DNA of 56,382 nt. Origin: Prorocentrum cordatum (Eukaryota). Where the stretch lies: contig CAUYUJ010000093.1 in assembly GCA_963575745.1 (NCBI GenBank), positions 62,001 to 118,382 of the forward strand. The letters are read 5' to 3'. Shown piece by piece: positions 4,921 to 47,162 of the stretch (position 1 is its first letter; each line of letters starts with the position of its first letter). The notes under the pieces were generated by a model. The model saw only the letters and a list, made by a program, of their open reading frames with translations. It was not told the origin of the DNA and searched no databases. Made by a program: the position numbers and the translations under genes.

Positions 4921-5404
4921 GTGTTCTTGCATACGGAGCGTTCAAATATACGCCTCGTGTGGAGAAATTGGGTGCGGTTGAGATCGTTCATGCTGTGGGT
5001 TTACTGAGCCTCTCGGCTCGACGTGGTTCCAGGAGGGCCTCGGAGGAACCACAGAGTGACAAACGAGCACCCAATGAGGGCTCCAAGCTGCCCCACCGAA
5101 CGGCTCAGGACAGCCCCACGAGGGCCCCAAGATGGCACAGGATGGGCCCGCGACCGCCTTAGATGGCCCAGTAATGCTCCCAAGACAGCCTCTGAGAGAC
5201 TCTCCGGGCGGCCGACAGGGCCCAAGACAGCACCAACACACATCAGGCGAGTTTTGAGACGGTCCTAGAAGATGGCCCCACGACAGCCCCCCAGGAGCTC
5301 AAGACAACGCCAATAGAAACAAGAGGTGCAACATTCTACGGCCTTCTGGGCGGTGCTCGAGGAGTCGCCACACAAAGGGCACGGTAGCGGAACTTACCCC
5401 AGGC

Positions 5405-6228
5405 AGTTTGATGTCCTCCGACTCCTGCACAAAAATGCCAACCAGCACGTTGAGGAGACAAAGGGTCACCATAACTACGAAGAGTATGTAGATCCACCCG
5501 AAAGCGGGGCTGATCATCTGGAACGGCTTCATGAGGTCGCCATAGTCAGCACCACCAGTGAGGGAGAATATCAACGAAATCATTGCAAGATTCATGGATC
5601 CCCAATTTTCTCTGAGATCATCTACCACCTCGTCGCTCCTGTCAACTGAGTCTTGCTCCAAGTAAAATATCGCGAGGTCCTCGAAGAGGATCGCCCAAAT
5701 GAAAATGAACATGATTAGCAACGCCAGTGCCCAACCGAAAGTCGGTATGCAAGTCAAAATGTACAACGTCATCCAACGCAACTGGTGCAAAGCCTTGAAA
5801 TGCTGGCAAACACTGAGCAGACGAATGAGCCTGAAGGCCCTGAACACCCGGATGAATTGAACACACTGAATCATACGACCTCTCAGAGGAATAAAAGACT
5901 GCGCCAGATCTAGCAGAGCGCACGACAACAAGAACACCTCAAACATGTTGCCCAAACCAGACGACCCGCGTTCGAAGAACCGGCTCCTTTCTGCGACTAA
6001 CTTTATCGAAATCTCAACCATCCAGACCACGATGAGCCCTTTCGCAACCTGTTCATAAAAAGTAGCCGTCCGGGTCCAGTGCCCTCGCCTCTGGTCTCCG
6101 AGAAGTTCCTGCATCTGCGCGTCCACGACAATGCCGAGCACGACTGTCTGCAGCAGAACGATGGTCGTGGTGACGATTGGCCATACGTAGTGAGAGGTCA
6201 GCTTAATCGCCTTGTGGCTAGTCCCTCC
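5405..6228 (-). CDS. Ion-transport (S1-S6) exon of a single-domain voltage-gated cation channel
   Basis: Frame open from 6228. S1 YVWPIVTTTIVLLQTVVLGIVVD; S2 ...VVWMVEISIKL; S3 NMFEVFLL; S4 voltage sensor FIRVFRAFRLIRLL; S5 ALLIMFIFIWAILF; pore SLIFSLTGGADYGD; S6 YILFVVMVTLCLLNVLVGIFVQ. Confidence 0.9.
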
Positions 6229-6684
6229 TCATGTCCCTCCTCATCCTTCGTCTGTCCTTCTGCTCTTCCTCTTCCTGCTCCTGCGGCGTGGCCGAGCTCC
6301 TCCTGCTCCTCCTGCTCCTCCTCCTCCTTGATCGCCATATGCTGCAGGGAACCTGGCTCGGCATGGAGCACGTCCTTGCCACTGTCATAGTCCTGGGAGA
6401 GCAGATGTGGCATCTACTCTCACACTCCTCCGCCTCCTCATCATCACCACCACCGTGATCATCATCATCCTCCTCCTCCTCCTCCTCCGTCCTCCTCCTC
6501 CGTCCTCCTCCTCCTCCTCCTCCGTCCTCCTCGTCCCCGCCATCCTTCAACTCCCCGTCGTCCCCTTCCTCCTCCTGGGAGGGGGAAGGCCTCCGGATAT
6601 GCCTCCTGCAATTTCGGGGGGCTTCCTGGAGGTCTCCAGGGGTCCCCAGGGGCCTCCCGAGGCCCCCAGAAGCCCCCCCCCAAA
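6218..6684. other. Repeat-rich intron/insertion in the channel gene, flanked by a GTGG direct repeat
   Basis: GTGG at 6214-6217 and 6685-6688. Removing the insert plus one repeat joins ...RFHCIH to KAIKLTSHY... in frame. Confidence 0.6.
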
Positions 6685-7209
6685 GTGGATACAGTGAAAA
6701 CGTATAGTAAGGACGCGTGGTAAGGACGCAAGACCCTTGGAGGCCGAAGTTGAAGTATTCTGGGCGGCAGGCGGCCAAACCCCCAGGGAACCTGAGAAAC
6801 TGGCCTGCGAAGATTGCCAGGGACGGGCAACAGAGGCTGAAGCAGGCAAGGACCCAAGGGTACCCTTGAAAAAGTCGTTCGTCCTTACTATGCGCGTCGA
6901 CTGTAAGCCACGTCGGTAGATCTCGATCCTCGATGACGACGACGAGGGAACACGGACATGCTCTTGCCCTCCCGCGTCCTCGCTGGCCATGCCGCAGCCC
7001 TGCATCCCGGATGCAAGCGAGTCGCTGTCGCCGTCACTGTCCGCGTTCGGCATCTTCACCAACTCCATCGTCGAGCCGCGGAGCGGCCCAAGCACGCGAT
7101 CCGCAACGAGCGTGGGCGAGCGGGCCGGGGCCGCCGTCCTCGGGCAGTGCTTGCGATGCGGTGTGCGCACGCGTTGAGAAGTCTCTGCCTCCGTGGACCC
7201 CGAGCATGT
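6685..7209 (-). CDS. Probable upstream exon (disordered cytosolic N-terminal region) of the channel gene
   Basis: Non-repetitive open frame, in phase with the S1-S6 exon, preceded by TAG at 7210-7212 (possible acceptor). Confidence 0.55.
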
Positions 7210-7229
7210 CTAGCTCTTGCGCTTAGGAT

Positions 7230-7230
7230 A

Positions 7231-7293
<63 letters not shown>

Positions 7294-7480
7294 ATCTATG
7301 TACTTATGTGTATGTATATGTGTATGGACAGGTATTTGCAAGTGTACATACATACGATTATGCTTATGTTTATGTATGTGTATTTGTGTACACCTGTATG
7401 TCTCTCTCTCTCTGCCTGTATGTATGTATGTCTGTATGTATGTATGTATGTGTGTGTATGTATGTATGTATGTATGTCTG
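7230..7480 (+). repeat. (TCTG)n and (TATG)n microsatellites
   Basis: Direct reading. Confidence 0.95.
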
Positions 7481-7491
7481 CGATTATAGCC

Positions 7492-7963
7492 TATGGGGAT
7501 TACTAATTTCTGTTCCAAGTGAGTTTTCCACTCCACTGCTCGCGCAAACATCCCAACCACCCACCCGCAACTTGGTTAGCAAAATCTCTTAAGACCGTGA
7601 CGGTGGGCACCAAATGGCACTTGGCAACGACAGCGACGCCGACGATGACAACGACAACGACGACGACGACGACGCCGCCGACAACGACTACGACGACACC
7701 GACGACGTCTCCAACGACTTCGACGACGCCGACAACGACGACAACGACACCGATGACGACGACGACGACGCCGACGGCGACGACGACGACGACGATGACA
7801 ACGACGACGACGATGACGACGACGACAACGACGACACCGACGACGACGACGACGTCAACGACGCCGACGACGACGACGACGACGATGACAACGACGCCGA
7901 CGATGACGACGCCGACGACGACGACAACGACGACACCGACGACGACGACGACGTCAACGACGC

Positions 7964-10340: not shown

Positions 10341-10639
10341 CGGAAAAACTTCTGAGGATGTCTCAAGCGAGGCGCGGGTTTCAGCACCCCCAAGGGGGAG
10401 CCGCCAGGGGGCATATCACCCCTCCGCTCGCGCCAAACATGGCGGGGATGCCTCGAGCGGTTTGCCTGCTTGCCAGCGAGCGCAGCATCCTCCGCTTTCG
10501 GAGCAGGTGTTGAGGATGCCACAGGCGAGGCGCAGAGTTTCGCACCCCAGAGCGGGCCAGATTTTGAGAGGATGCCTCGATCGGTCTGCCTGTTCTGGTG
10601 GCCAGACGCGTGGGCACGGACCCTCCCCAGGGATGCCAA

Positions 10640-11124
10640 CAGGAGGCTCCGGCAGGCTCGAGAGGAGGCCCCAGGAGGCCCCAGGAGGCAGCAGCAGGAG
10701 GCCGCAGGAAGGCTCAAGAGGCCACAGGATGCCCGAAGAGGCTCTAGGAGGTCACAGGAAGCTCCTCCTCCTCCTCCTCCTCCTCCTCCTCCTCCTCCTC
10801 ATCCCCCTCCTCCTCCTCCTCCTGCTCCTCCTCCTCCGCAGGAGGCTCTGGGATGCTCCAGGCGGCGACAGGAGGCACGAGGAGGCCACGGGAAGCGCCG
10901 GAAGGCATCAGGAGGCCCCAGGAGGCCCCAGGAGCAGGAGGCCTCAGAAGGCCACAGGAGTGGCTCCAATCCCATGTGTTTTACGTGTGCTCCTATAGAT
11001 TGGGCCTCCCCTGGAGCACGAGTGTTTTACGTATGTTCCTATAGATTGGGCCTCCCATGGGGCACGAATCCTTTGTGTTTTACGCGTGTTCCTATAGATT
11101 GCCCTTATCCTGTGGCTCCAATCC
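10640..11124 (+). repeat. Host repeat for the LINE, left half: GGAGGCCCCA decamer repeats plus a ~50-bp unit (GTGTTTTACGTGTGTTCCTATAGATTGGGCC)
   Basis: Three ~50-bp units at 10960-11124; the same units resume at 17438-17670 after the LINE. Confidence 0.8.
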
Positions 11125-11126
11125 TT

Positions 11127-11148
11127 TCCGTAGCCATTTTGGCTCAAG
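11127..11148 (+). other. Dinoflagellate spliced-leader sequence, perfect 22-mer (retroposed copy)
   Basis: TCCGTAGCCATTTTGGCTCAAG matches the DinoSL consensus DCCGTAGCCATTTTGGCTCAAG; followed by AC, not by the GT donor of an SL-RNA gene. Confidence 0.97.
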
Positions 11149-11275
11149 ACTCCATGCTTGGGGGGCTGCAAGCCTCCTGGCCACCACGGGATAGCTCTGT
11201 TCCCCGAGCTCGACTTCCATCGGCGCGCGCGGCTTCCCTCGTTTTGGCACTTATAACACTGTGGTTGTCTCGGCC

Positions 11276-12250
11276 ATGGCACCTCAGTGGCAGTGCGTTT
11301 GTGGAGAGTACCACGCGGCCGACCGCACCCGTTGCACGAAGCCTGGATGCGGCGGCATGCGACCTCGCTTTCCACGTGGAGCTGGGCAGCCCTGGCAGCA
11401 ACCTTGGCAGCTTCGTCAGCCTCCCACCCGTGGCAAGTGGGCTGACTCGCCGCCGAGCAACCAGTGGGGTCACAACGGCAAGCTCTTCAAGGGCAAGGGT
11501 GCTGGTGGCGACAAGGGCTCCACGGGCACCACCCTCAGCGCGGAGCAGGTCAAGGTTTGGGCCACGTTCGGGCAGGAGACGTGGGAAGCGACTAAGCTCA
11601 CCCTCACGCAGTCCTCTCGTGGGAAGGTTGAGGCTGCTCGTCGCGCTCATTCTCTCGGTCTGGTGGGGAGGTCGGCACCTCAGAAGGTGGACGGACTTGC
11701 TCGCCAGCTCGCGGATGCCCAAGATCGGCTTCAGCGCGATTCGGAGGTGGCTCGCAAGGCGCTGGAGCAGGTGCACACGACGAAGGTGGTCATCGCGCAG
11801 CTGCAGCAGGAGCTCGCGGAGGCCAAGCGAGAGGCGGCCGCGCTCTACGGCGGAGGCATCAGCCCTGACGCGATCAAGGAGAAGCTCGGCTCGCTCAACA
11901 CCGACGGTGTCTCTGGCCAGGACCTCCTCGAGCAGCTCTCCAAGATGGTCAACGAGCTCGCCGAGGAAGCGAAGGCAGCTCGCCCGCAGGGCGGGGCTCC
12001 CGCCGCTGCAGGCGGCGCCGCGCCCGCCCCCGAGCCAGCCGCCGCCCAGCCTGGCGGAGGTGAGGCCGCAGCGGCGCCCGCAGCAGGCGCGGCGCCAGCA
12101 GGGGACGGTGCGGGCTTCGACGCTTTCCTGGGCGGGGAGGATCCTGGTGGGCTTCTTGGCAGCTGCGGCGATGACGACGAGCAGCGCAAGAGGATCCGCG
12201 ATGCCCTGGATGTCCTGCGGTCCGCCAAGAAACCGCGGACCTCAGGGTAG
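11276..12250 (+). CDS. LINE ORF1: N-terminal RanBP2-like C4 zinc finger, coiled coil, basic C-terminus (324 aa)
   Basis: MAPQWQCVCGEYHAADRTRCTKPGCG; heptad-like LARQLADAQDRLQRD...IAQLQQELAEAKRE; ends AKKPRTSG*; strongly G/C-ending codons. Confidence 0.85.
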   Translation: MAPQWQCVCGEYHAADRTRCTKPGCGGMRPRFPRGAGQPWQQPWQLRQPPTRGKWADSPPSNQWGHNGKLFKGKGAGGDKGSTGTTLSAEQVKVWATFGQETWEATKLTLTQSSRGKVEAARRAHSLGLVGRSAPQKVDGLARQLADAQDRLQRDSEVARKALEQVHTTKVVIAQLQQELAEAKREAAALYGGGISPDAIKEKLGSLNTDGVSGQDLLEQLSKMVNELAEEAKAARPQGGAPAAAGGAAPAPEPAAAQPGGGEAAAAPAAGAAPAGDGAGFDAFLGGEDPGGLLGSCGDDDEQRKRIRDALDVLRSAKKPRTSG

Positions 12251-15200
12251 TCACCCTCGCGGGCGCTGGTGGACAGCTCTCTCCATCAACGTCAACGCGT
12301 ACAGCAGGTTCGAGAGCATTCTTGGCTACGAGAGTCTCAGGAGTTGCGACCTCGTCGCGGTCCAGGAGACGCACTTGTCTCAGGAGCGGTGCTGTGAGGT
12401 CACCGACAAGCTGCAGGGACCGGGTTGGCATGCGGTTGCCACGCCAGCTACAAACGTCTCTGTTGGGCATGCTGGTCACGGTGGACTCTTGCAGCTGGCG
12501 CCCAGGTCCTCGGGCCTAGGCGAGTTCGAGGCTGGGCAGCCGACGGTGCTCACGCCAGGTCGCGCGGCTGTCGCGCATGTAGCAGGCCCCTTCCCTGGGG
12601 GGCTGGCTTGGATCAACGTCTACTTGAAGGTTGGCGAAGGCCTCTCGGCTTTCAACCTTGGCATCCTGGACGGCATCGCGATGGCGATTCGCGCCATTGG
12701 CAAACCCTTCGTGATCGCGGGGGACTTCAACATGGAGCCCCACGAGCTCCAGTGCTCGGGCTTTCTCGAGCGCGTCGGAGGCAAGGTGGTCTCGCCAGCG
12801 GACGGCACCATTCGGCCATCGGGCAAGGTGATAGACTACTTCGTCATCTCTCACGTGATCTCGGACCCGCATGCGGAGATCAAGCTTGGGTGGGATCTCT
12901 CTCCTCACTTCCCCGTCGAGCTCAGGTTCAACGCCAGCTCGGTCAACAGGTACATGCAGGTCATGAAGGGCCCCAAGAAGCTCCCATACCCTCTACCCAA
13001 GGCGTGCTGTACCGAGGACCACTCCCAGATGTGGACGGAGGTGCGCGGCCGCATGGCGGCTGCTTCTTCGCTGGACAACATGTGGCAGACCTTCATCCAC
13101 AGCGCCGAGTGGTACTTGCTGGACGCCATCGGCCTAAAGCACGCTTATCACGAGTTTGCTGGACGTGAACGGCGGCCCAGGCTGGCCGTAGTCAAGGTGC
13201 TCAAGCCGTCGGCGCCCAGGTTGCCGAGGATGACCGCCACCACCTCCTGGAGCAAGAGCGTGGCTATCGCGCTCAAGGACGCTGCGCAGATCGACCTCGA
13301 GCTGAAGAGGCATGGGGCGCTGAGGGCGCTCGATCGTTTGTGCAGTGCTCAACCCGATTTTCGGGCCGACTCCAGGCAGGAGACGGCGCAGGCTCACATT
13401 ACCTTGCTGGGCTTCGCGCAGGCGGCGCAGGTCATGGATCTGCCCCAGCTGCAGGTTGCGAGCTTCATCGCCACCACCATGGCAGACAAGCTTGTGCAGC
13501 GGGACGTAGACAAGGCGAAGGCTGGATGCGCAAACTGGATCGCCGAGAACCACGCTAGAGGGACGGGGGCCCTCCACTCCTGGACCAAACCTCCGCAGGG
13601 TTGGCAAGCGAGGCCCTCTGGAGCCCCAGGGAGCGAGCCTAGGACGCTCTCTCAGACGGTCCAAGCCCTGGTGAAGGAGTGGTCAGGATACTGGGGAGTG
13701 GGGCCCCCCACGCCGCTGGGGGGCGAGCTCGCGAAGGCGCCGCTCGAGTGGCCAGCTGATCTTGGCGAGCGCCCTGCCAGGCCGTCGGTGAGCGAGATCA
13801 GGGCGGTCATCGCCACCTTCAGGGACTCCAGCGGCTCGTCTTTCGACGCGCTGCGCCCGCACGAGCTGGGCGTGCTCGACGACGCTGGCATCGAGGCGCT
13901 CATCGACTTGCTGGTCGCCATCGGGCTGCAGTGCGACTGGCCCTCCTTCGTCACCAAGCTGGCCTTCATCCCCAAGTCGGATGGGGGCCTCCGACCAATC
14001 GCGCTGCTGGGCGCGGTGGTCCGCATCCACGGCAGGCTCCGCAGGAACATCGCGAAGGCCTGGGAGGCGTCGCACGACAGGGACTACTGGTGGGCCAGCT
14101 CGGGCAAGAGCTGCGACAGGGCAGTGTGGCAGCAGATGGCTCGAGCAGAATGGGTCCAGATGATGGGCGAGCTGAACAGGGGCCAGGACTGGGCCTCGGC
14201 GTCGATCATGATGGACTTGTGGAAGGCTTTCGAGCAGATCCTGCACGGCAACCTGGTGCAGGCGTGTGTCCAGCACAACTTTCCACTGTGGCTGGCCAAG
14301 CTGCAGGTCTCACTCTACCGTCTCCCTAGGGTTATCAGCCTGGAGACGTGCTGCTCTGACGAGCTCACGGTTATGCAGACGGTGCTGGCTGGGGATGCTT
14401 TCGCCACTACCTTCATGAAGGTCATGCTCCTCTCGCCCCTCGACGAGATGAAGATCGCCTGCCCGACGGTGGTCCCCGCTGTCGTGGTCGACGACGTCGT
14501 GCTGCAGCGCTGGGGGGGAGTGAAGCGCGTCGCCAAGGACCTTACCATGGCCGCCAAGGCGGTGGTAAAGGGGTTGGCGAAGGTTCACCTGTCCGTTGCC
14601 GTCAAGAAGTCGCGCGTGCTGGCCGGCAGCAAGGGCCTGAGGGCCACTCTTCAGAAGCACCTGGGCTCGACCACGGGCGCGATCAGTGTCAGGGAGGTGC
14701 GCAACCTCGGCATCGACTACACGGAGGGCGGCAGGCGGTCTAGCGTAGTCAGGCGGCACCGCATTGCTCAGAATCGTCTTCGCCTTCCTCGAATCCGACG
14801 GCTGCTGGGCCTTCGTCGAGGCAGAGCCGCAGCGGCTAAGATTGTCTCGACAGGCTTGGCTCCCAGCCTTTTCTATGGCATCAACTGTACGGGGCTCAAC
14901 AACACGGAGTTGCAGCAGGCGCGCAGCATTGTGCGGCATGCTATCGAGCCGAAGCCCCATGGGAAGTCGCTCACGGCGTGTTTGCTGGTGGGGGGCTCTC
15001 CCACCATCGACCCCCTCTTCGAGGCGACGCTGGCACCCTGCTTCACGCTGGCGCGCGCTGTGTGGGAGAAGTGGTTGCCGCTCGCGCAGCTCAGGCCGGC
15101 CTTCGAGTGGGCTGCGAGCTCGGCCACCTGCTGGGCTGATGTGCGTGGGCCGCTTGGTGCTGTGGTCATGTCGCTTAGGAGGATCGGCTACGACCCCAAG

Positions 15201-16559
15201 GCGCTGGACTGCATTGTCAGGCCGAACGGCACGATCATCAACCTGCTGGAGGTTTCCCCCTGGTACGCCAAGCAGTGCATCACGCTAGATGTGAAGTCGT
15301 GGCAGATGAAGCTCCTGGCCGACGGCACTCACGATGACGTTCGCAGTGGCATCTTTGTTTCGCAGTTGCGGCGATGGTTCGCCAAGGGCGTGGGGAGCTC
15401 CAACCTGGCCAAAGACTGGGAGCCGCTCAACAGCAGCCAGCGAGGGTACGCGCGCTCGGTCTTCGTCCTTGGGCAGTGGGCAAACAGCAGGCGGTACCAC
15501 GGTGCCCCGCGGTTCTCTCACACGCCGTGCTGCCAGTTGCATCCTGAGCAGCCTGGCACCCTCTGGCACAGGCACACCGCCTGCCAGGACAGCTGGCCGA
15601 GCCTGGCGCTCCCAGCCGAGATCAGCAAACTCGTTCCCTTCAGCACCAGCGTGACCATCACCACGCTCCTCGAGAGGCTGGTCCTCCCCGAGCCTCTCCA
15701 CACGTGGCGCCCGCCAGGCGACGACCTCCTCGCGCACGTGCAGTGGCTCAAGGGCGGAGACGGCTTCCCGTTCTCCAACACCACGGTCTACTCCGACGGC
15801 GCTGTCTACGAGGCTGGGATCTCGCTGGCGGTGGGGGCCTGCGGCATGGTGCAGCTGCCCGACGGCGGCGACGACTGGGATCCTGGGCCCGAGTCGGCCG
15901 TCAAGGCCCTGGGCACGCCTTTGCCTGGGCCTTTGCAGTCCATTGACGGGGCCGAGCTCCTGGGATGCCTGGTGCTTCTCCGCCACAGCCTGCCTCCGAT
16001 CACAACGGCCTTCGACGCCTCGTACGTCACCAACGGCCTGACGGTGAGGGGCGAGGCCGGCACCACCAAGGCGACCTCTGCCTGGGGGTGTGTATGGCGG
16101 CGCGTCTGGGCGGCACTGGACGACTTCGGTGGCATTGGGCCCCAGGGGCTCACGATTCAGAAGGTGAAGGCGCACGCCACGGTGGCCATGGTCCAGAACG
16201 GGGACATCACTGCCCGCGACAGGCGAGGCAACTGGGAGGCCGATCGTGCGGCGAAGGTGGTTGCAGCCGCAGTGAGGGCGCCGCTCGAGCTTCGCGAAGC
16301 CTGGCAGCGGCGGTCGCTCACTCTCGACGGCGTCGTGCACTGGGTCGCGCGCGCGGGGTGCGAGGCAGCTGGACATCGACCCGAACTGCAAGCCGATTCA
16401 CAAGGGGCCGCCTCTCAGCATCACCAGGCACGATGTGATCAAGGTGGCTGGGGGCGGAGTCCATTGCAGGGCCTGCCTCACGACGGCCTACACCGACCTC
16501 AGCATCAAGCGGCTGCTCAAGGATCCGTGTGTGGGCAAGCCGTTTGCGCCCGTGGCTAG
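12201..16559 (+). CDS. LINE ORF2 polyprotein: AP-like endonuclease, reverse transcriptase, zinc knuckle, RNase H (start may be ATG 11154, 12201 or 12210)
   Basis: APE: SINVN, VAVQETH, INVY, IAGDFN, IDYF, SPHFPV. RT: FIPKSDGGLRPIALL, DLWKAFE, QTVLAGDAFA, VVDD, VRNLGID. CQLH...TLWHRHTAC knuckle. RNase H: YSDG, GAELLG, FDASYV, KVKAH, GNWEADRAAK. Confidence 0.93.
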   Translation: MPWMSCGPPRNRGPQGSHPRGRWWTALSINVNAYSRFESILGYESLRSCDLVAVQETHLSQERCCEVTDKLQGPGWHAVATPATNVSVGHAGHGGLLQLAPRSSGLGEFEAGQPTVLTPGRAAVAHVAGPFPGGLAWINVYLKVGEGLSAFNLGILDGIAMAIRAIGKPFVIAGDFNMEPHELQCSGFLERVGGKVVSPADGTIRPSGKVIDYFVISHVISDPHAEIKLGWDLSPHFPVELRFNASSVNRYMQVMKGPKKLPYPLPKACCTEDHSQMWTEVRGRMAAASSLDNMWQTFIHSAEWYLLDAIGLKHAYHEFAGRERRPRLAVVKVLKPSAPRLPRMTATTSWSKSVAIALKDAAQIDLELKRHGALRALDRLCSAQPDFRADSRQETAQAHITLLGFAQAAQVMDLPQLQVASFIATTMADKLVQRDVDKAKAGCANWIAENHARGTGALHSWTKPPQGWQARPSGAPGSEPRTLSQTVQALVKEWSGYWGVGPPTPLGGELAKAPLEWPADLGERPARPSVSEIRAVIATFRDSSGSSFDALRPHELGVLDDAGIEALIDLLVAIGLQCDWPSFVTKLAFIPKSDGGLRPIALLGAVVRIHGRLRRNIAKAWEASHDRDYWWASSGKSCDRAVWQQMARAEWVQMMGELNRGQDWASASIMMDLWKAFEQILHGNLVQACVQHNFPLWLAKLQVSLYRLPRVISLETCCSDELTVMQTVLAGDAFATTFMKVMLLSPLDEMKIACPTVVPAVVVDDVVLQRWGGVKRVAKDLTMAAKAVVKGLAKVHLSVAVKKSRVLAGSKGLRATLQKHLGSTTGAISVREVRNLGIDYTEGGRRSSVVRRHRIAQNRLRLPRIRRLLGLRRGRAAAAKIVSTGLAPSLFYGINCTGLNNTELQQARSIVRHAIEPKPHGKSLTACLLVGGSPTIDPLFEATLAPCFTLARAVWEKWLPLAQLRPAFEWAASSATCWADVRGPLGAVVMSLRRIGYDPKALDCIVRPNGTIINLLEVSPWYAKQCITLDVKSWQMKLLADGTHDDVRSGIFVSQLRRWFAKGVGSSNLAKDWEPLNSSQRGYARSVFVLGQWANSRRYHGAPRFSHTPCCQLHPEQPGTLWHRHTACQDSWPSLALPAEISKLVPFSTSVTITTLLERLVLPEPLHTWRPPGDDLLAHVQWLKGGDGFPFSNTTVYSDGAVYEAGISLAVGACGMVQLPDGGDDWDPGPESAVKALGTPLPGPLQSIDGAELLGCLVLLRHSLPPITTAFDASYVTNGLTVRGEAGTTKATSAWGCVWRRVWAALDDFGGIGPQGLTIQKVKAHATVAMVQNGDITARDRRGNWEADRAAKVVAAAVRAPLELREAWQRRSLTLDGVVHWVARAGCEAAGHRPELQADSQGAASQHHQARCDQGGWGRSPLQGLPHDGLHRPQHQAAAQGSVCGQAVCARG

Positions 16560-17208
16560 CGGCGCGAGGCGCAAGCCTGCCGCGTCGGCGTTGGCTTCTG
16601 CGGGCGCTGTGGCTGTGGCGCTGGCGGCGGCTCGCAGGCTCGAGCAGGAGGCTCAGAGCGAACAGGACGACGAGCTCGCGGCGGTCCCCGAGCCCGAGCC
16701 CCAGCCAGCTGCGCCGAGCCCCGTCGGCGCCGCGCGTGAGCCACCAGCTGTGGGTACGCGGGCGCTGCGACGCCCTGAGGCGGAGGCGGCAGGCGGTGGC
16801 AGCAGCAGCAGCAGCAGCGGCCAGGACCCTTCGCCTGGTGCTGCCCTCCTGCGCGCGGTGGCCGCCGCCCGTGCTGCGCGCGAGGCTCAGGCCGCGGCGG
16901 CAGCGGCTCCCGCCGACGGCCAGGCGGGCGCAGGCGCCGAGGCCGCCCAGGACGCCATGCAGGTGGACGAGCCTGGGGGGTCAGGCACCCAGGAGGCTGA
17001 TGGGGCGGGCCACGCGCTGCTCAGCATCAACGGCTTCAGGGTCTGCACGCGGTGCAAGGCCTACGCGAAGGAGGTCAACGGCAAGCACAGGACGCTCGGC
17101 AAGACGTGCGTCGCGGCCTCAGGCAACGCGCTACGCTTGCGCAACCTGAAGGTCGCCAACATCAGGGCAGGCTTGGACCCGAAGACGGGCAAGCGCCTGA
17201 GTGGATGA
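16360..17208 (+). CDS. Probable true C-terminus of ORF2 in the +1 frame, with two His/CxxC zinc-binding modules
   Basis: +1 frame is open from 16276 and G/C-ending codons switch to it near 16360; HDVIKVAGGGVHCRAC...PC and HALLSINGFRVCTRCKAY...TC flank an Ala/Pro/Glu linker. Confidence 0.75.
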   Translation, partial: ARQLDIDPNCKPIHKGPPLSITRHDVIKVAGGGVHCRACLTTAYTDLSIKRLLKDPCVGKPFAPVASGARRKPAASALASAGAVAVALAAARRLEQEAQSEQDDELAAVPEPEPQPAAPSPVGAAREPPAVGTRALRRPEAEAAGGGSSSSSSGQDPSPGAALLRAVAAARAAREAQAAAAAAPADGQAGAGAEAAQDAMQVDEPGGSGTQEADGAGHALLSINGFRVCTRCKAYAKEVNGKHRTLGKTCVAASGNALRLRNLKVANIRAGLDPKTGKRLSG

Positions 17209-17892
17209 GTTGGGGAGCGCCTTCGGTGGTCTGGGCCTTTTCAGGCTCGGCACGGGGTGGATGGTGGCTCGCGTGGCCGCCTCACCTGACGGCGCACACC
17301 CCAGAGGCGTGGCAAGTGCGCGGCAACGATGAGGCCGCTGTTTGCGGAGCCTCTTGGGCCGCATTTTGGGGCTGTCGCCTCCTTGCCCGCCTGGATCGGC
17401 TCGTGCTGCGCGAGCCGCTCTGGTCATTAAAAAAAAAGTGGCTCCAATCCGAGGTGTTTTACGTCTGTTCCTATAGATTGGGCCTCTCCTGAGGCACGAA
17501 TCCCCACCAGGAGGCTCGAGGAGTCTCCAGGAGGCCCCAGGAGGTCACACGAGGCCCCAGGAGCCTTCAGGAGGCCACAGAAAGCCGAGGTCGCAGGAGG
17601 CTCAAGAGGCTCCAGGAGGCCCCAGGAAGCCCCGGGAGATTTCAGGAGGCCCCAGGAGGCCCCAGGCGCATGCGCAGAGACGGACTCGCACTACTGAGAC
17701 TCATTTGCACTCCAACTCGTTCACAGTTAGATTCACTCCTAGACCGTCAAAACTCAAGCCCGTTTATACTCGAAAGCTCTTGCGCCTACGCACTCACGGC
17801 GGACAGGTCCGTGCTAATAGATGCACATATGGGGAGCTTCACGCAGTCAACAATGTATTGATGAGCAAATCTTGTTGTGCTTATCCCCGCCA

Positions 17893-31819: not shown

Positions 31820-32710
31820 ATGTGTGTGTGTGTGTTTGTGTGTGTGTGCGTGTGTGCGTGTGTGCGTGTGTGTGTGTGTGTCTGCGTGTGCGTGTGTACG
31901 TGTCTGCGTGTGCGCGTGAGCGCGTGTGCGGCGCGTGTGCGCGTGTGCGTGTGCGTGTGCGTGTGCGTTTGCGTGTGCGTGTGCGTGTGTGTGTGTGTGT
32001 GTGCGTGTGTGCGTGTGTGCGTGTGCGTGTGTGCGTGTGTGCGTGTGTGCGTGTGTGCGTGTGAGTGTGTGAGCGTGTGTGCGTGTGCGTGTGTACGTGT
32101 GCGCGTGAGCGCGTGTGCGGCGCGTGTGCGCGTGTGCGTGTGCGTGTGCGTGTGCGTTTGCGTGTGCGTGTGCGTGTGTGTGTGTGTGTGTGCGTGTGTG
32201 CGTGTGTGCGTGTGCGTGTGTGCGTGTGTGCGTGTGTGCGTGTGTGCGTGTGAGTGTGTGAGCGTGTGTGCGTGTGCGTGTGTACGTGTGCGCGTGAGCG
32301 CGTGTGCGGCGCNNNNNNNNNNNNNNNNNNNNNNNNNNNNNNNNNNNNNNNNNNNNNNNNNNNNNNNNNNNNNNNNNNNNNNNNNNNNNNNNNNNNNNNN
32401 NNNNNNNNNNNNGTGCGTGTGCGTGTGCGTGTGCGTGTGTTCGTGTGTGTGTCTGTGTGTCTGTGTGTCTGTGTGTCTGTGTGTCTGTGTGTCTGTGTGT
32501 CTGTGTGTCTCTGTGTGTCTGTGTGTCTCTGTGTGTGTTGTGTGTGTTGTGTGTGTTGTGTGTGTGTGTGTGCAGCCGTGCGCGAACCATACTGTATGCA
32601 CTTATGCGGGTGGACATGTGCAGCTGCATGTGTGTGCGTGTGTGCGTGCGTGCGTGGGTGCGTGCGTGCGTGTGTGTGTGTGTGTTTGTGTGTGCGTGTG
32701 CGCATGTGTG
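31820..32710 (+). repeat. (GT)/(GTGC) microsatellite containing the assembly gap
   Basis: Direct reading. Confidence 0.95.
32313..32412. other. Assembly gap (100 N)
   Basis: Run of N. Confidence 1.
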
Positions 32711-33147: not shown

Positions 33148-34128
33148 TCACAAAGAGGAGGAGATCCACAGATTTGCAATCCACTTCGTTCCACGACGCA
33201 CGGGGCAACCTGAATGCATTGATTCCCGGACGAGACGCGCATCGCCATCACTACCCTCCATATTGTACCATAAGACGGCATCTCCGGCCTTAGGCGCAAT
33301 GACGAGGGCCCCAGAGCCAGACCTGCATGTCCGCACTGGGAGGCAGTCGATCTTGAGCCTCTCCCACTCCAAATCGCTGATGTTTCGCCCAGCGTATGGG
33401 AAAACCAGCTCGCCACCCTTGAAACCGTCGTTGAGAAAGACCTCCAGTGTTGCTCGTCGGTGCAAATACCCTTCGGTGGTGTCCGTGTGGCAAGAGTAGT
33501 GACCTCGGCGACCGTAGCGCACTACCTGAAGTGGCTCGCTGCCAGCCCCGAGCAAGCCTGGCAATGGCAAGTCCAGAAGGCTCGCGGCGCGTTGGACGAT
33601 CTCAGCAGCCACATGATGGAGTTGTGCAGGAATCCAGGTCTGCTCCGAGAAACGATTCGCTAGGTGAGGTTGATCAGTTCGGAGACTCTGCAGATATTCC
33701 AACCAGTCAAAGCGAACGAATTCTTCTGATCCGAGCCTGTCGCTGCGTGCAGCGGTTAGAAGATGCGTGTGGTTGTGGTTCGCCATATTAAACCACTGGG
33801 ACAAGAAATGCCGAGTCTCCGTTGTGCAGAGAAGCCCATCTTTGTTTGAGTCTGCTTGAGCAAAGACCAACTCTTTCTGCTTGGGGTCACCATGCCAAAC
33901 AGCCATCTGCTCTATACTGTTTTGAAGTCCAGGATCCTCTGACACTGTCCCACTGCGAGCAAGATTGAGCTCAGCAGCTGAAATCAATTCCTTTGCACTT
34001 GCCTGGGAAAGAAAGCTTTTGAAGTGACGCAACAAGGGCCTCTCTCCAATATGCGTTGGTGCGGCATGTCCGGCGTCAGCAACAGCAGCCATTAAAAATG
34101 GCACCGCCATGATGGATACCACAAACAT
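33148..34128 (-). CDS. Intronless 2OG-Fe(II) prolyl 4-hydroxylase with N-terminal hydrophobic signal and EF-hand insert (P4HTM-like), 326 aa
   Basis: MFVVSIMAVPFLMAAVADA; FKSFLS...ELI; EF loop DSNKDGLLCTTE; RFSEQTWI; SEPLQVVRYGRRGHYSCHTD (HxD); GGELVFP; PKAGDAVLWYN; SMHSGCPVRRGTKWIANLWI (distal His and 2OG-binding Lys). Alternative ATG at 34209. Confidence 0.92.
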   Translation of the reverse strand: MFVVSIMAVPFLMAAVADAGHAAPTHIGERPLLRHFKSFLSQASAKELISAAELNLARSGTVSEDPGLQNSIEQMAVWHGDPKQKELVFAQADSNKDGLLCTTETRHFLSQWFNMANHNHTHLLTAARSDRLGSEEFVRFDWLEYLQSLRTDQPHLANRFSEQTWIPAQLHHVAAEIVQRAASLLDLPLPGLLGAGSEPLQVVRYGRRGHYSCHTDTTEGYLHRRATLEVFLNDGFKGGELVFPYAGRNISDLEWERLKIDCLPVRTCRSGSGALVIAPKAGDAVLWYNMEGSDGDARLVRESMHSGCPVRRGTKWIANLWISSSL

Positions 34129-34479
34129 GGTGCTGATGGAATACGTGGAGCTGGTATCAACCCTAACGCTGCGCGGGCTTGAGTTGTGCACAAGCAATTG
34201 ACATATCATATTTTACCGTGTGAGGTGCGTTCTCTTTCTTGATGTACCTACCCTGTGGTTTTGTGATAAAACAGTCTGGCATCACATTCACTGCGCAGTC
34301 AACCATTTAATCGTGCACATTTCGCTTGCAGAATAATTACCCACATCCTAAGCGAGGTTCTTGCTTTCCCAGAACTTCTTCCCCTTCCTCACCTCCTCGT
34401 CCTCCTCCACCTCCTGCTCCTCCTCATCTTCCTCACGCAACTTCCACACACCCTTCTCTGGCAAGCCCTTCCCACTCAA

Positions 34480-42300: not shown

Positions 42301-44029
42301 AATTGGGCCGCGTGCCCCATCGTCGGGAGCGCCCTTGTCGCGTAGTTGATGAAGTTCTGCAAAGCAAGCGCCGAGGGCGCTGCGAGCGCTGCCACGCTAG
42401 AAAGGCCTGTGGCCCAAGGCGCTTCCCAGGAGAGCATCGCAGAGGCGCCAGGCCCAAGCCACATGTCTAAGTATAAAAGTGTAGCCTCTATTCTGGATGC
42501 CTTCCAACCGGCAATGCGCAGCTCCAAATAATCCGAGACGGTGGCAGCCGGGGTGAGCCCATGCGCGCCAGCAATCGGGGCGATCCCGCACAATGGTGGC
42601 TTGATCTTCAGATTTGCAAGTTTCCCGGCGACCGCCATGGTGCGATGAGGGAAGCGGAGATCAACGCGATCAAAGTGAATGCCTCACATATCGCCCGCGC
42701 CTGCTCGAAAGAGTCCGCGATGAGGAACTTCCAGTCCGAGCCTGAGTTCTCGAGGAAGGGAGACGTCGCCACGGCGACAAGGCTGCCAGAGAGCGCGCAG
42801 CCTTGCATGATGCCGCAGCAGATCTGGAAGAGGTCCCGCGCGATCCCCGCAACGCGGCCGACAGCGATGACCATCGCGTAGAGCGACCGAAAAGCCGCCA
42901 GTCAAGCGCTAGAGAGGCGCAGCTATTCCAGAATTGCAAAGAGGTGCTCCTGGCTGAGGCTGGGGAACGCCTGGCCGAAGTCCAGTGCTACCAGGAGTGG
43001 GCGCTTGGTTTCAGCCTGCGGTGCCACTGATGCCACTCTTGCCATGACGTCGATCTCGGGGATGTTAGAGGCGAACTGACGGCCAGCGATGAAGCCGCGC
43101 TGCGCCATGGACGTCGTCAGCTGCAGAATCGGGGTGAAGGAGGCGCTGAGCATCGCCGAGATGACCTTCATATCGGTATTCCGCAGCCCAAGCATGCGAA
43201 CAGAATCTGGGGACCGATCAATACCTCTTTCTTGGTCGTCGCTCGCCTGACAGCCACTGGGCAGAAAAACTTGCAACGTGTACCCCGATGCCGTGAAAGG
43301 CTCCTGACCATCCACCAACCAAACACACGCTCGCCATAGTCCCTCTGCCCCTTCACCGTGACCGGCCCACGCCGCGCATGGGAGACCATCGACGCCTGGT
43401 GCCGACCGAGACAGAGCCAGCCGGCGAAGGGTACGAGCAAGTAGTCGGGTAGTCGCAGGCCCGATGGTGGCGCCATGCTCGGGTAGTCGCAGGCCGTGAC
43501 AAACTTCTGCGCGCGCAGCTTGGCGCGCAGGGGAAATGTTGGCGGCCGCGCCGGAACAGGGGCCCAATCGTCTGCGAGAGCCGTCAGTTTCGCCTCTGGA
43601 TCTGCGTTGAACGAGTCACCGACGCGCGCGGCTCGAAGCGTGAACTGTTTTGCAGGCGGAACCCACAATCTCGCCTTCCGCCGCGCAGCAGAAATCATCT
43701 CCGACGCCAATTTGGCCCGCCCTGTCCCGCGAAGCGCGTCCTGGTTCAGGGCTGCGAGGTCGCGCTCAGCCACCGCGCGTCGCACTGGGGCCAACCGGGC
43801 CTGGAAGGCGACGAGGTCGACCAGCTCAACCCCCGCAAACGACACAGACATCCAACTGCGGGCCACTTCCGACGAGTTCAAGACCTGGACAGCCACCGCC
43901 GCGCCCTGCCCCCAGACGGCCCGCGCAGCTTGCCGCGCAAAGATCAGCTGGTCGCCCAGGCTGTCGGCGTCGCCCGCCCATATTTGATGCAGAGCATCGC
44001 GCGAAGCCGCGCCGACGGAATTCTAGAAT

Positions 44030-44915: not shown

Positions 44916-47140
44916 TGCTGCGCGGCGTTCCAACTGCCACGGCGGCGATAATGCCGCGAAGGCAAATGCTTCTGGCTGCAGAAGACGCCCCACTTTCCGC
45001 TGGAATTGAGGCCGTTGATAATCGCGTGCACGGACATGCTTGCGATGGGCGCCATCTTGCCTTCGGTGCGAGCTCGAGCACGAATGGCCGCGTGATCTGA
45101 GACCCCCCGCGCGTGAAACTCCTCGGGGGTAGATAGAAACTACTGCAACCGAAAGATGCGATTGACGAGCCATCGAAGTCGGTTCAGAGGTCCAGAACCG
45201 ATCGATTTGTGCAAGCGTGCAGGTGTCTTTGCAATAGCGCGTGGGATTTTCCGAAGCAGTCTCGGACTTCTGCTTTAGCGCTTGCATCCAAGTCCTCATG
45301 TGGGTCCTCGCATAGTCGGTGGGCTTGAGATCCCGCGCCAGATCTGGCCGCGCAAGATGCAGAGCATCATGGGGCGCGAAGGTGAAGTCGCCGCGCGCCG
45401 CCGCCGTGCGCGCCCGAGGGCCAGCGCGTGCCCGAGCGATGCCCGCCTCGAGCTCCGCCGTGACTGCCTGGGCCCGCGGCGATGAGAGACCGTGATATAT
45501 GCGTTGAAATGCGGAGCTTCAACGCTAGAGCAACGTGAAGCTGTCTGCAATGACTCTGCCCGGAACGAGCGCAGAGGACGTGGCGCTCGACGCTGCGGCG
45601 ATTGAAATAGGCGCTGCCGCGGCGGCGCCCCATCGAGCGTGGTCTTCTCGATCGAGCCCAAAATGAGCAAGCGTTGTGGAAGACGGCGCAGCCCTTGACG
45701 TGAAAAGCTGCAGCTCCTCTAGCGGATGGCGCGCCTCCTGCGCCGCGAATGGAGTTGGTGAGTCCCGCTTTGACCATGTGGGCAGCCTTGCTCGTCGCCT
45801 GCGTGCCTCGCCAGCGCAGCAAAGCCCTTGCATTCCACGGGGCGAAGGAGAGCTCGGGCGACTTGGGGGCCGCGCCAGCCTCGGGTGCCGCGGTAGGCGC
45901 CAATATCGGGTCGATGAGCTTGCGAATGTCGGATCGTGCCCCGCTTCGAGAAGACAAAGCAGCATCGTGCCAGTAGCAGGCAGTAGCATCCCGACCAGTC
46001 TGGGTTTCCAATCGCAATATCGGGTCCCAGCTTTCGGTTGTCCATCCATTCTGTCTGCCGCGATGGAACTTCGAGGATGCCCCCGAAGAAGCGAGACCAC
46101 TTTCTCGCCCGACCTCTCCAGCTTGATCTGGAAGGGGCTTTTGTCAGGGCCGTATGCAGCTGACCAGTGCCGCCAGACGCAGCTGGAACTGGAAAACGCA
46201 TCCACTGCCCCTCCCCAGGAAGGCGAAGGGCTGCGAGAGCTTGGGCCACTTTTTTCCCAGCAGTGCCAGCAGCTCCGTTGAATTGAATCGTGAACAGCTT
46301 GTCTTGAGCATCTCCGACCACAGTGTAATTGTCCAGCTCAGCGTCGTGCAACCACTTGCCAACCGATAAGACCACATCTTCCTTTTTGACCAGGAAGCCG
46401 ACGCCACAACCTTGAGTATGGTTCCGTCCGCTTCACGTTGAAACCCTGCGGATGGCTTGGGCGGCGGGGGGGCACGGTTGGCAACTCGTCCATGGCCTGG
46501 CGCATTTGGTCCATATCTACCGCCAAGGATTCTGTAAGATTGTCGATGGCTCGCATTTGGGCTTGAAGGGTGTCCAACTGCTGCTGCGTGCGTCGCTCCA
46601 TATCACCCAGCTGCGTCTTGAGCTGCGATCCGACCTGCGCCTTGCACGTGATCGGGACCGACTTGGCTGCACCTTCCAGCGCTTTGATGGCCGCCATGGC
46701 TGGATCGACTGCCTTGCCTGCTGCTTCACTTGCCGATGCTGAAGCAAGCTCGGCGATCTCATTCTGGAGAGACTCGGACTCCACCTGCAATTCTCCATGG
46801 ATGAGGCCCTTGATATGAACGCCCCGACTTGTACCATCCATGCCACCTGCGTCGTCGCTGACGGCTCGGCTGGACCGCGACCGATCGCCATCCCGATGGG
46901 CAGTAGCACCAGGAGGGCCGCCAGGACTTGCAATGCCACAACCGCGGCCTAGCTTGTTCTTCTTCTTGGTGATACCAACACCGTTCTTTCCATCTTGCGT
47001 GGGCAGGCGCGCGCACACGGCGAAGACTGGGTGGCGGGGGCCCAAGTCCCGCAGAGCAGGTCGAGAGAGACTGCCAGGCAGAACTGTCTTGCCCGCCTCG
47101 GACCAGGGGCCTCCACTCCGATCCACGGGGGGCCCATCAC

Positions 47141-47162
47141 CTTGAGCCAACATGGCTACGGA
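47141..47162 (-). other. DinoSL relic, 21/22 match
   Basis: Reverse complement of CTTGAGCCAACATGGCTACGGA is TCCGTAGCCATGTTGGCTCAAG. Confidence 0.93.

Follow-up and report, generated by a model that had tools for sequence, protein, structure and literature searches.

A 56,382-nt stretch of Prorocentrum cordatum DNA (contig CAUYUJ010000093.1, positions 62,001–118,382, forward strand, assembly GCA_963575745.1; hereafter the window) carries a long interspersed nuclear element (LINE) which, inside its target-site duplication (TSD), begins with a complete dinoflagellate spliced leader (SL; DinoSL). The element is probably a non-long-terminal-repeat (non-LTR) retrotransposon of the Symbiodinium-LINE type without DNA methyltransferase (DNMT), reverse-transcribed from its own SL-trans-spliced mRNA. 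Dinoflagellate mRNAs are universally SL trans-spliced, and in the proposed course of events the mRNA of a source LINE would have received the 22-nt DinoSL by trans-splicing at an AG just upstream of ACTCCATG, and would also have been polyadenylated. Target-primed reverse transcription of this mature mRNA would then have run to the extreme 5' end of the leader, leaving a DNA copy that begins with the whole SL and is flanked by 13-bp TSDs in a tandem repeat.

Direct reading of the sequence confirmed the layout given by the first-pass annotation, namely TSD, TT, exact 22-nt DinoSL, open reading frames ORF1 and ORF2, A9, and TSD (Table 1). CCT directly precedes the 5' TSD, the SL runs into ACTCCATG, and about 6.3 kb of insert follow before the tail, whose A9 is the longest plus-strand A run in the whole window. 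The element has a G+C content of 66%, the window one of 61%. When the element was compared with the window by BLAST, it matched only itself, with TSD and 3' poly(A) present and terminal repeats absent, and no further copy was found in the window by blastn, by tblastx, or by tblastn with relatives.

The two TSD copies agree at 13 of 13 positions. Three occurrences of the 13-mer were counted in the window (0.11 expected), which is explained by the location of the insertion in a short array of 46–53-nt units bracketed by 10-nt CCAGGAGGCC-type repeats, and in this setting a pseudo-TSD formed from two neighbouring units therefore had to be considered. Alignment of the units showed that every unit junction holds one segment of the form G[T/G]GGC[T/A]C[C/G]AATCC, then a 3-nt linker, then GTGTTTTACG; the third 13-mer, at 10960, is the junction of a paralogous unit and reads 13-mer, CAT, GTGTTTTACG. 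When the insert is removed, two 13-mers come to lie side by side, an arrangement seen in no repeat unit. The five sequencing runs listed include no RNA run; three of them share words with the window, with small shares (0.13, 0.06 and 0.05), and contigs of four runs were compared with it, those of run X4 giving no match placed on the window. Contigs of X1 and X3 link 11124 straight to 17460/17461, with GCAATGTTTTATG or GCAATGTTTTCTG intervening, and, among the loose contig ends listed, those at 11124 (9 in X1, 3 in X3) run into repeat sequence without an SL; the empty units seen in this way are paralogs within a very abundant repeat, not the orthologous site. The 13-bp duplication is a true TSD with the SL inside it, and since the paralogous empty units have no SL, the SL came with the insert.

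Several statements of the first-pass annotation are borne out by these results. It had placed the SL inside the TSDs, which agrees with the single 13-mer per unit junction and with the paralogous joins in X1 and X3, and it had called the target an unrelated repeat, which the tandem units without SL bear out. It had also held that an SL already present at empty sites would make the leader target sequence, and the paralogous units in the window and in the X1 and X3 contigs carry none. Its conclusion that the SL was on the RNA template that was reverse-transcribed is sound, given an SL inside a real TSD and paralogous empty units lacking it.

The 22-mer at the head of the insert is the canonical DinoSL, for which the published formula is DCCGTAGCCATTTTGGCTCAAG in the portions of the literature available, with T at the variable first position. 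A search with the 21 constant bases, allowing 3 mismatches at most, found two matches in the window, one exact (that of the LINE) and one with a single mismatch (47141–47161, minus strand), while none of 100 shuffles yielded any match at up to 3 mismatches. The relic 15-mer CCATTTTGGCTCAAG, at up to 2 mismatches, was present in the window only at the same two SL places, in keeping with the earlier statement that there is one SL and no stacked relic. The possibility that the SL of the LINE is an SL-RNA gene was considered and excluded, since it is followed by ACTCC instead of a GT donor. The SL exon stands alone in the insert, ending exactly at ...CAAG, and TCCTTTCCGTAG, which stands before its internal AG, makes a better pyrimidine tract than the sequence before the terminal AG. 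Rfam gave no match at gathering score anywhere in the window, and at E ≤ 1 the sole match in 10900–11700 was to an unrelated long non-coding RNA model (E 0.44); the 5' end thus has no known ribozyme, including those like that of hepatitis delta virus (HDV). The 5' flank, scanned for sigma-70 promoters and terminators with a model inapplicable to the host organism, gave nothing.

Table 1. Features of the SL-headed LINE, its target and a second SL-like locus, in window positions.
Feature	Position	Strand	Remarks
5' target-site duplication GTGGCTCCAATCC	11112..11124	+	end segment of ~53-nt tandem repeat unit
TT filler between TSD and SL, belonging to neither	11125..11126	+	direct reading
Complete 22-nt DinoSL TCCGTAGCCATTTTGGCTCAAG	11127..11148	+	then ACTCC, no GT intron
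5' untranslated region (5'UTR), 127 nt	11149..11275	+	
ORF1, 324 aa	11276..12250	+	
ORF2 from first in-frame ATG, overlapping end of ORF1	12171..16559	+	APE endonuclease, RT, RNase H
C-terminal zinc-knuckle domain (CxxC...C; CxxC...H...C)	16276..17208	+	frame other than that of RNase H
3'UTR, 220 nt	17209..17428	+	ends GGTCATT
Poly(A) tail, A9	17429..17437	+	
3' target-site duplication GTGGCTCCAATCC	17438..17450	+	then GAGG
Left target: tandem 46-53-nt repeat units	10976..11111 (array 10976-11127)	.	preceded by 10-nt CCAGGAGGCC-type repeats (10663-10960)
Right target: one further repeat unit, then 10-nt repeats (17507-17666)	17451..17666	.	
Second SL-like locus	47161 down to about 42600	-	SL-like 22-mer and decayed RT-like stretch

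The element has a LINE-type reverse transcriptase (RT), an N-terminal endonuclease resembling apurinic/apyrimidinic endonucleases (APE), and a TSD and poly(A) without terminal repeats. ORF1 contains an N-terminal zinc-finger-like motif (C-x-C...C-x4-C), a central coiled-coil-like stretch and an Ala/Pro-rich tail; searched against Pfam, it had no family above cut-off and no DNA methylase. In OR​F2, motifs of the APE endonuclease (QETH at 12363, GDFN at 12720, SPHF at 12900), RT (IPKSDGG at 13968, VVDD at 14484) and RNase H (YSDGA at 15789) were located, with homology extending to about 16232. Pfam found Exo_endo_phos alone in ORF2, at E 4e-5 and 23.9 bits, below the cut-off of 24.5, and RVT_1 was undetected in the LINE's own ORF2 at E ≤ 0.1. 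phmmer with ORF2 matched 4821 proteins at E ≤ 0.001 (340 at E ≤ 1e-30), mostly at about 30% identity, with a few short fragments at 60–85%, and a word-index protein search gave one match. After alignment of ORF2 with 17 relatives, RVT_1 was found in 15 of the 18 sequences, Exo_endo_phos in 9 and RNase_H in 7, and the profile of this alignment, searched against the PDB, matched the RTs of R2 and human LINE-1 ORF2p (E 7e-9 to 1.5e-7) as well as retroviral and cellular RNase H. The identification as a LINE made in the first-pass annotation is upheld by the ORF2 phmmer relatives, the Pfam domains of the aligned family, the PDB profile matches and the catalytic-type motifs.

The copy is nearly full-length and not fully intact, owing to a frameshift before the zinc-knuckle domain. 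The frame of this tail is open from 16276 to 17208, with homology at 16969–17205, and is out of frame with RNase H. In the relatives P0004, P0079, P0095 and P0134, and in the A1 consensus, a zinc-knuckle tail follows RNase H in frame; since these carry both domains in one protein, a single frameshift is placed within 16276–16559. Mutation and assembly error are both candidate causes, with programmed frameshifting a less likely one. Across the element, from SL to tail, there are 4 stops in the ORF2 frame versus 20–81 in the other five frames, and the copy looks young because the TSDs are identical at all 13 positions, the A9 is pure and stops in the ORF2 frame are few.

As a separate observation, the open ORF2 frame extends about 1.7 kb to the 5' side of its first ATG (10470–16559, 2029 codons), through ORF1, the 5'UTR, the SL and flanking repeat, which is probably due to chance in G+C-rich DNA and would mislead gene callers. 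The peptide encoded in this frame by the SL and 5'UTR had no protein match at near or shorter lengths, and the SL-encoded peptide was absent from the 150 listed phmmer relatives of ORF2 and from P0004.

On the preferred reading, the SL was added to the LINE RNA by trans-splicing and would not have been transcribed from DNA. Since trans-splicing needs an acceptor with an upstream outron, transcription of the source copy would have begun in that outron, upstream of the inherited part, and its start would thus lie outside the sequence passed on to offspring. The LINE would then depend on transcription from outside, and the 5' end of its RNA would be set by trans-splicing and not by an internal promoter or ribozyme. 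That it needs no internal promoter is a plausible and reasonable proposal, as a logical consequence of the outron requirement rather than an observation. Among 99 long ORFs outside the element, Pfam supported only two, both host-like and on the minus strand (Ion_trans, 5302–6228; 2OG-FeII_Oxy_3, 33151–34212), opposite to the plus-strand LINE; if the region were one unidirectional gene block, the LINE copy would receive no sense read-through. A wider proposal is that LINEs here are promoter-less passengers of host transcription, with an RNA 5' end made by SL trans-splicing in place of the internal promoters or HDV-like ribozymes of other LINEs and a full SL stamped on each copy, that the number of relics counts the generations from a master copy, and that the same target-primed machinery, acting in trans on further SL-capped mRNAs, is the source of the ~20% SL-tagged dinoflagellate retrogenes; this whole is possible, and is put forward tentatively. 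The RT of the LINE as a driver of SL-marked gene retroposition is, taken by itself, plausible.

Five points weigh against reverse transcription of a trans-spliced LINE mRNA as the origin of this copy. The 5' end is known from one copy only, and a DNA-encoded, inherited SL is compatible with a single young copy. The frameshift means that the copy is not in itself proof of an autonomous element, and the empty sites examined are paralogous units of a high-copy repeat, not orthologous ones. Finally, the TT between TSD and SL is unexpected for a leader starting at the capped first base. Since the base after the 3' TSD is G, the TT lies outside the duplication; it may represent filler added where the 5' end was joined, or an SL variant, and is unexplained.

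The first-pass annotation had proposed that read-through transcripts of integrated copies are trans-spliced with the terminal AG of the integrated SL as acceptor, so that one perfect SL is produced in each generation. The copy in the window does have one complete SL and no relic, and its SL abuts ACTCC; had the source also carried an SL in its DNA, this junction could come from the terminal AG alone. Relic DinoSLs in print, as far as the published text available describes them, consist of the SL followed by CCATTTTGGCTCAAG, which means that the acceptor normally used in an integrated SL is the internal AG, that of GTAG; on this basis, offspring of the LINE copy would be expected to carry a relic. 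The internal AG also has the more pyrimidine-rich run before it (TCCTTTCCGTAG), and a copy descended in one step from a master copy lacking an SL would equally be expected to have just one. Regeneration of the SL at the terminal AG in each cycle is therefore doubtful and, as an account of this copy, unlikely, the relic pattern and the pyrimidine run favouring the internal AG, and one complete SL is explained no less well by direct descent, in the first generation, from a master copy with upstream sequence ending in AG.

Less likely again, and rated improbable, is an SL that forms a DNA-encoded, inherited part of the 5'UTR, acquired once by an ancestor and not re-added, with transcription starting at it or just upstream. 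The TT could then be transcribed flank, which a freshly capped leader does not account for, and Song et al. 2017 (PMC5585692), in the text available, propose the TTTT of the SL as a promoter motif. DNA-encoded leaders also occur elsewhere, as 136 distinct occurrences of the exact DinoSL 21-mer behind AT-rich motifs in AT-rich IMG/VR contigs. An inherited SL would, on the other side, require an internal promoter firing exactly at the first bases of the element, for which there is no evidence, and with the SL canonical at 22 of 22 positions universal trans-splicing is the simpler source.

The IMG/VR occurrences (loci L001–L119) lie in contigs of 22% mean GC, mostly labelled giant-virus metagenome-assembled genomes (MAGs), which are probably viral. 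Of 135 cases, 129 have A directly before the SL; A+T makes up 87% of the 40 nt upstream, where motifs including ATATAAATTTTA and TTTACTAAACCA recur, and the first ATG downstream, at a median of 49 nt, opens an ORF of at least 100 aa in 105 of 134. From this sequence pattern, they look like a host leader encoded in DNA at the starts of viral genes; a literature search on host leaders of viral genes found no paper so titled. A search of the 119 SL-bearing stretches for encoded relatives of ORF1, ORF2 or the tail domain found none at E ≤ 1e-5, and a comparison of the same stretches with proteins of at least 900 aa (family relatives and the LINE's ORF2) gave no match at E ≤ 1e-8.

If the RT, having reached the end of the LINE RNA, had switched templates to a free SL RNA, in the manner of U6-L1 chimeras, both parts would likewise lie inside the TSD. 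Such a switch would copy the SL RNA from its 3' end, and so include part of the intron; the insert has only the 22-nt exon, ending exactly at ...CAAG, with no intron part, which makes this origin very improbable. Equally hard to credit is an SL belonging to the target (an older relic or an SL gene) or a junction that is an assembly chimera, since, even with high-copy repeat flanks prone to misassembly and a 100-N gap elsewhere in the window (32313–32412), the SL lies within a perfect 13-bp duplication whose copies would adjoin in the empty site, the paralogous units have no SL at all, and the SL makes up a single coherent insertion together with the ORFs, tail and TSD.

The LINE family occurs as many diverged copies in X1, a related DNA run. 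Contigs of X1 matched to the element and its flanks numbered 1401, a count that includes the flanking repeat, with 97 at 99% likeness or above, 310 at 95–99%, 583 at 90–95% and 411 below 90%. Contigs of X1–X3 cover 11166–11228 of the 5'UTR, where the summed depth of X1 is like that of the element body. The composite target repeat (10663–11124 and 17451–17666) has a summed X1 contig depth of about 6000–7700, versus about 30–230 in the LINE body.

IMG/VR protein scans with the RT core and with alignment A3 found no relative, and a metagenome scan with the ORF1 N-terminus gave 598 pattern matches and no relatives. The metagenome scan with A3 produced three distant relatives (L120–L122) at 30–40% identity; a search of them allowing 4 errors at most detected no SL-like sequence, none of the contigs reaches the expected 5' end, and in L121 the ORF2 frame is open off the 5' end of the contig. 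In a prokaryote genome collection, A3 found two loci, one a 28-residue match (L124) and the other (L123) an RT match at 503–841 of a 3545-bp contig, too near the contig end for a 5' end. The L123 contig, which holds a distant relative (30–40% identity) of the eukaryotic LINE RT, is filed under a MAG labelled Rickettsiales and is probably eukaryotic contamination.

The second SL-like 22-mer of the window (TCCGTAGCCATGTTGGCTCAAG, 47161–47140, minus strand) has one mismatch (CCATGTTGG) and lies behind a (CCT)n microsatellite. It is followed on the same strand by an ORF with a coiled-coil-like stretch (46341–47138) and, about 3.5 kb further on the minus strand, by a broken ORF (42926–43615) whose RVT_1 match falls below threshold (E 9.5e-5; 22.6 bits, the cut-off being 29.6); RT-like motifs seen by eye in this locus are QRGFIAGR, LDFGQAFPS and GIMQGCALSG. 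No similarity between the locus and the LINE family A1 was detected by hmmsearch, hhalign or tblastn, no PDB match was obtained, and no poly(A), TSD or LTR-like repeats were found. The locus is at most suggestive of an SL-headed retroelement that is older and decayed and belongs to a different family.

Dinoflagellate genomes hold thousands of retrogenes tagged by SL relics, and the responsible enzyme is debated. Reviews, in the text available, favour LTR/copia elements as the source of dinoflagellate retroposition, and the accessible part of one comparative preprint describes Symbiodinium LINEs as an ancient, diverged remnant and treats retroposition and retrotransposition as independent. A young LINE copy headed by an SL would mean that LINE machinery in the lineage copies SL-capped mRNA to its extreme 5' end and integrates it by target-primed reverse transcription. 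It offers a candidate enzyme, together with a signature (TSD length, tail and filler) to compare at retrogenes, and a testable idea, that the 5' end of a LINE may be defined by trans-splicing instead of by an internal promoter. An SL-headed LINE is an expected consequence of universal trans-splicing, undocumented so far as the literature search shows, which found no TSD-bounded, SL-headed LINE described for dinoflagellates, subscription-only papers being outside the search.

The closest known elements are the SymbioLINEs (de Mendoza et al. 2018, PMC5890265), which, according to the available text, share with the LINE here two ORFs, an ORF2 with Exo_endo_phos, RVT_1 and RNase_H, TSDs and a dinoflagellate host. 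SymbioLINE-Dnmt has a DNMT in ORF1 and is described there without poly(A), whereas the LINE here has no DNA-methylase match in ORF1 and ends in A9; no DNMT was found in any of 19 long relatives of the LINE that were scanned. LINEs without DNMT are described in the accessible text as coexisting with DNMT-bearing ones in Symbiodinium (PMC5890265), and the domain order of their ORF2 (Exo_endo_phos, RVT_1, RNase_H) is matched by the LINE family. The word "spliced" occurs nowhere in the main text of that paper, nor do "spliced", "DinoSL" or "CCGTAGCC" in three supplement files, so in those parts an SL at a LINE 5' end is not described. The LINE here is also associated with a spliced-leader sequence, as are SLACS, CRE and NeSL. 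Those elements insert site-specifically in SL-RNA genes and have a restriction-like endonuclease; the LINE here has an N-terminal APE, a 53-nt tandem-repeat target and an SL that is part of the insert, so that the separation from them drawn in the first-pass annotation stands, the copy lying outside an SL-RNA gene with no GT intron after the SL.

The RNA 5' end of R2 is released from a longer co-transcript by the element's ribozyme. In L1Tc/ingi, which have the Pr77 promoter and an HDV-like ribozyme (PMC3383444, PMC1874656, PMC3185411, in the text available), the RNA 5' end can likewise be cut from a longer co-transcript, as proposed here; the processing is by ribozyme there and would be by SL trans-splicing in the LINE, where Rfam found no ribozyme, and L1Tc transcripts are reported in the same sources as unspliced. 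In flatworms, partial leaders in LTR and LINE loci are described, in the accessible text, as possibly integrated trans-spliced transcripts, with assembly chimeras as the alternative (Boroni et al. 2018, PMC5832876; PMC12582326). The idea that retrotransposon transcripts gain an SL and then integrate is shared with these loci, as far as those sources present them; their leaders are partial, whereas the LINE here has a complete SL exactly at its 5' end, inside a TSD.

DinoSL-tagged retrogenes, or mRNA recycling, in which a 5' SL at the DNA level marks a reverse-transcribed, trans-spliced mRNA, were reportedly described by Slamovits and Keeling in 2008. Song et al. 2017 (PMC5585692), in the text available, found the Gene Ontology term "RNA-dependent DNA replication" enriched among SL-tagged genes and read this as retrotransposon activity, not as SL-capped elements; the literature thus already implies RT genes located behind SL relics. 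The LINE has in common with DinoSL-tagged retrogenes, as the accessible text of that paper presents them, a DNA-level SL at the 5' end of the transcript that marks reverse transcription of a trans-spliced mRNA, and its intact TSD and poly(A) point to target-primed reverse transcription. It differs from them in that the transcript is the element's own, the retroposed mRNA encoding the retrotransposition machinery itself.

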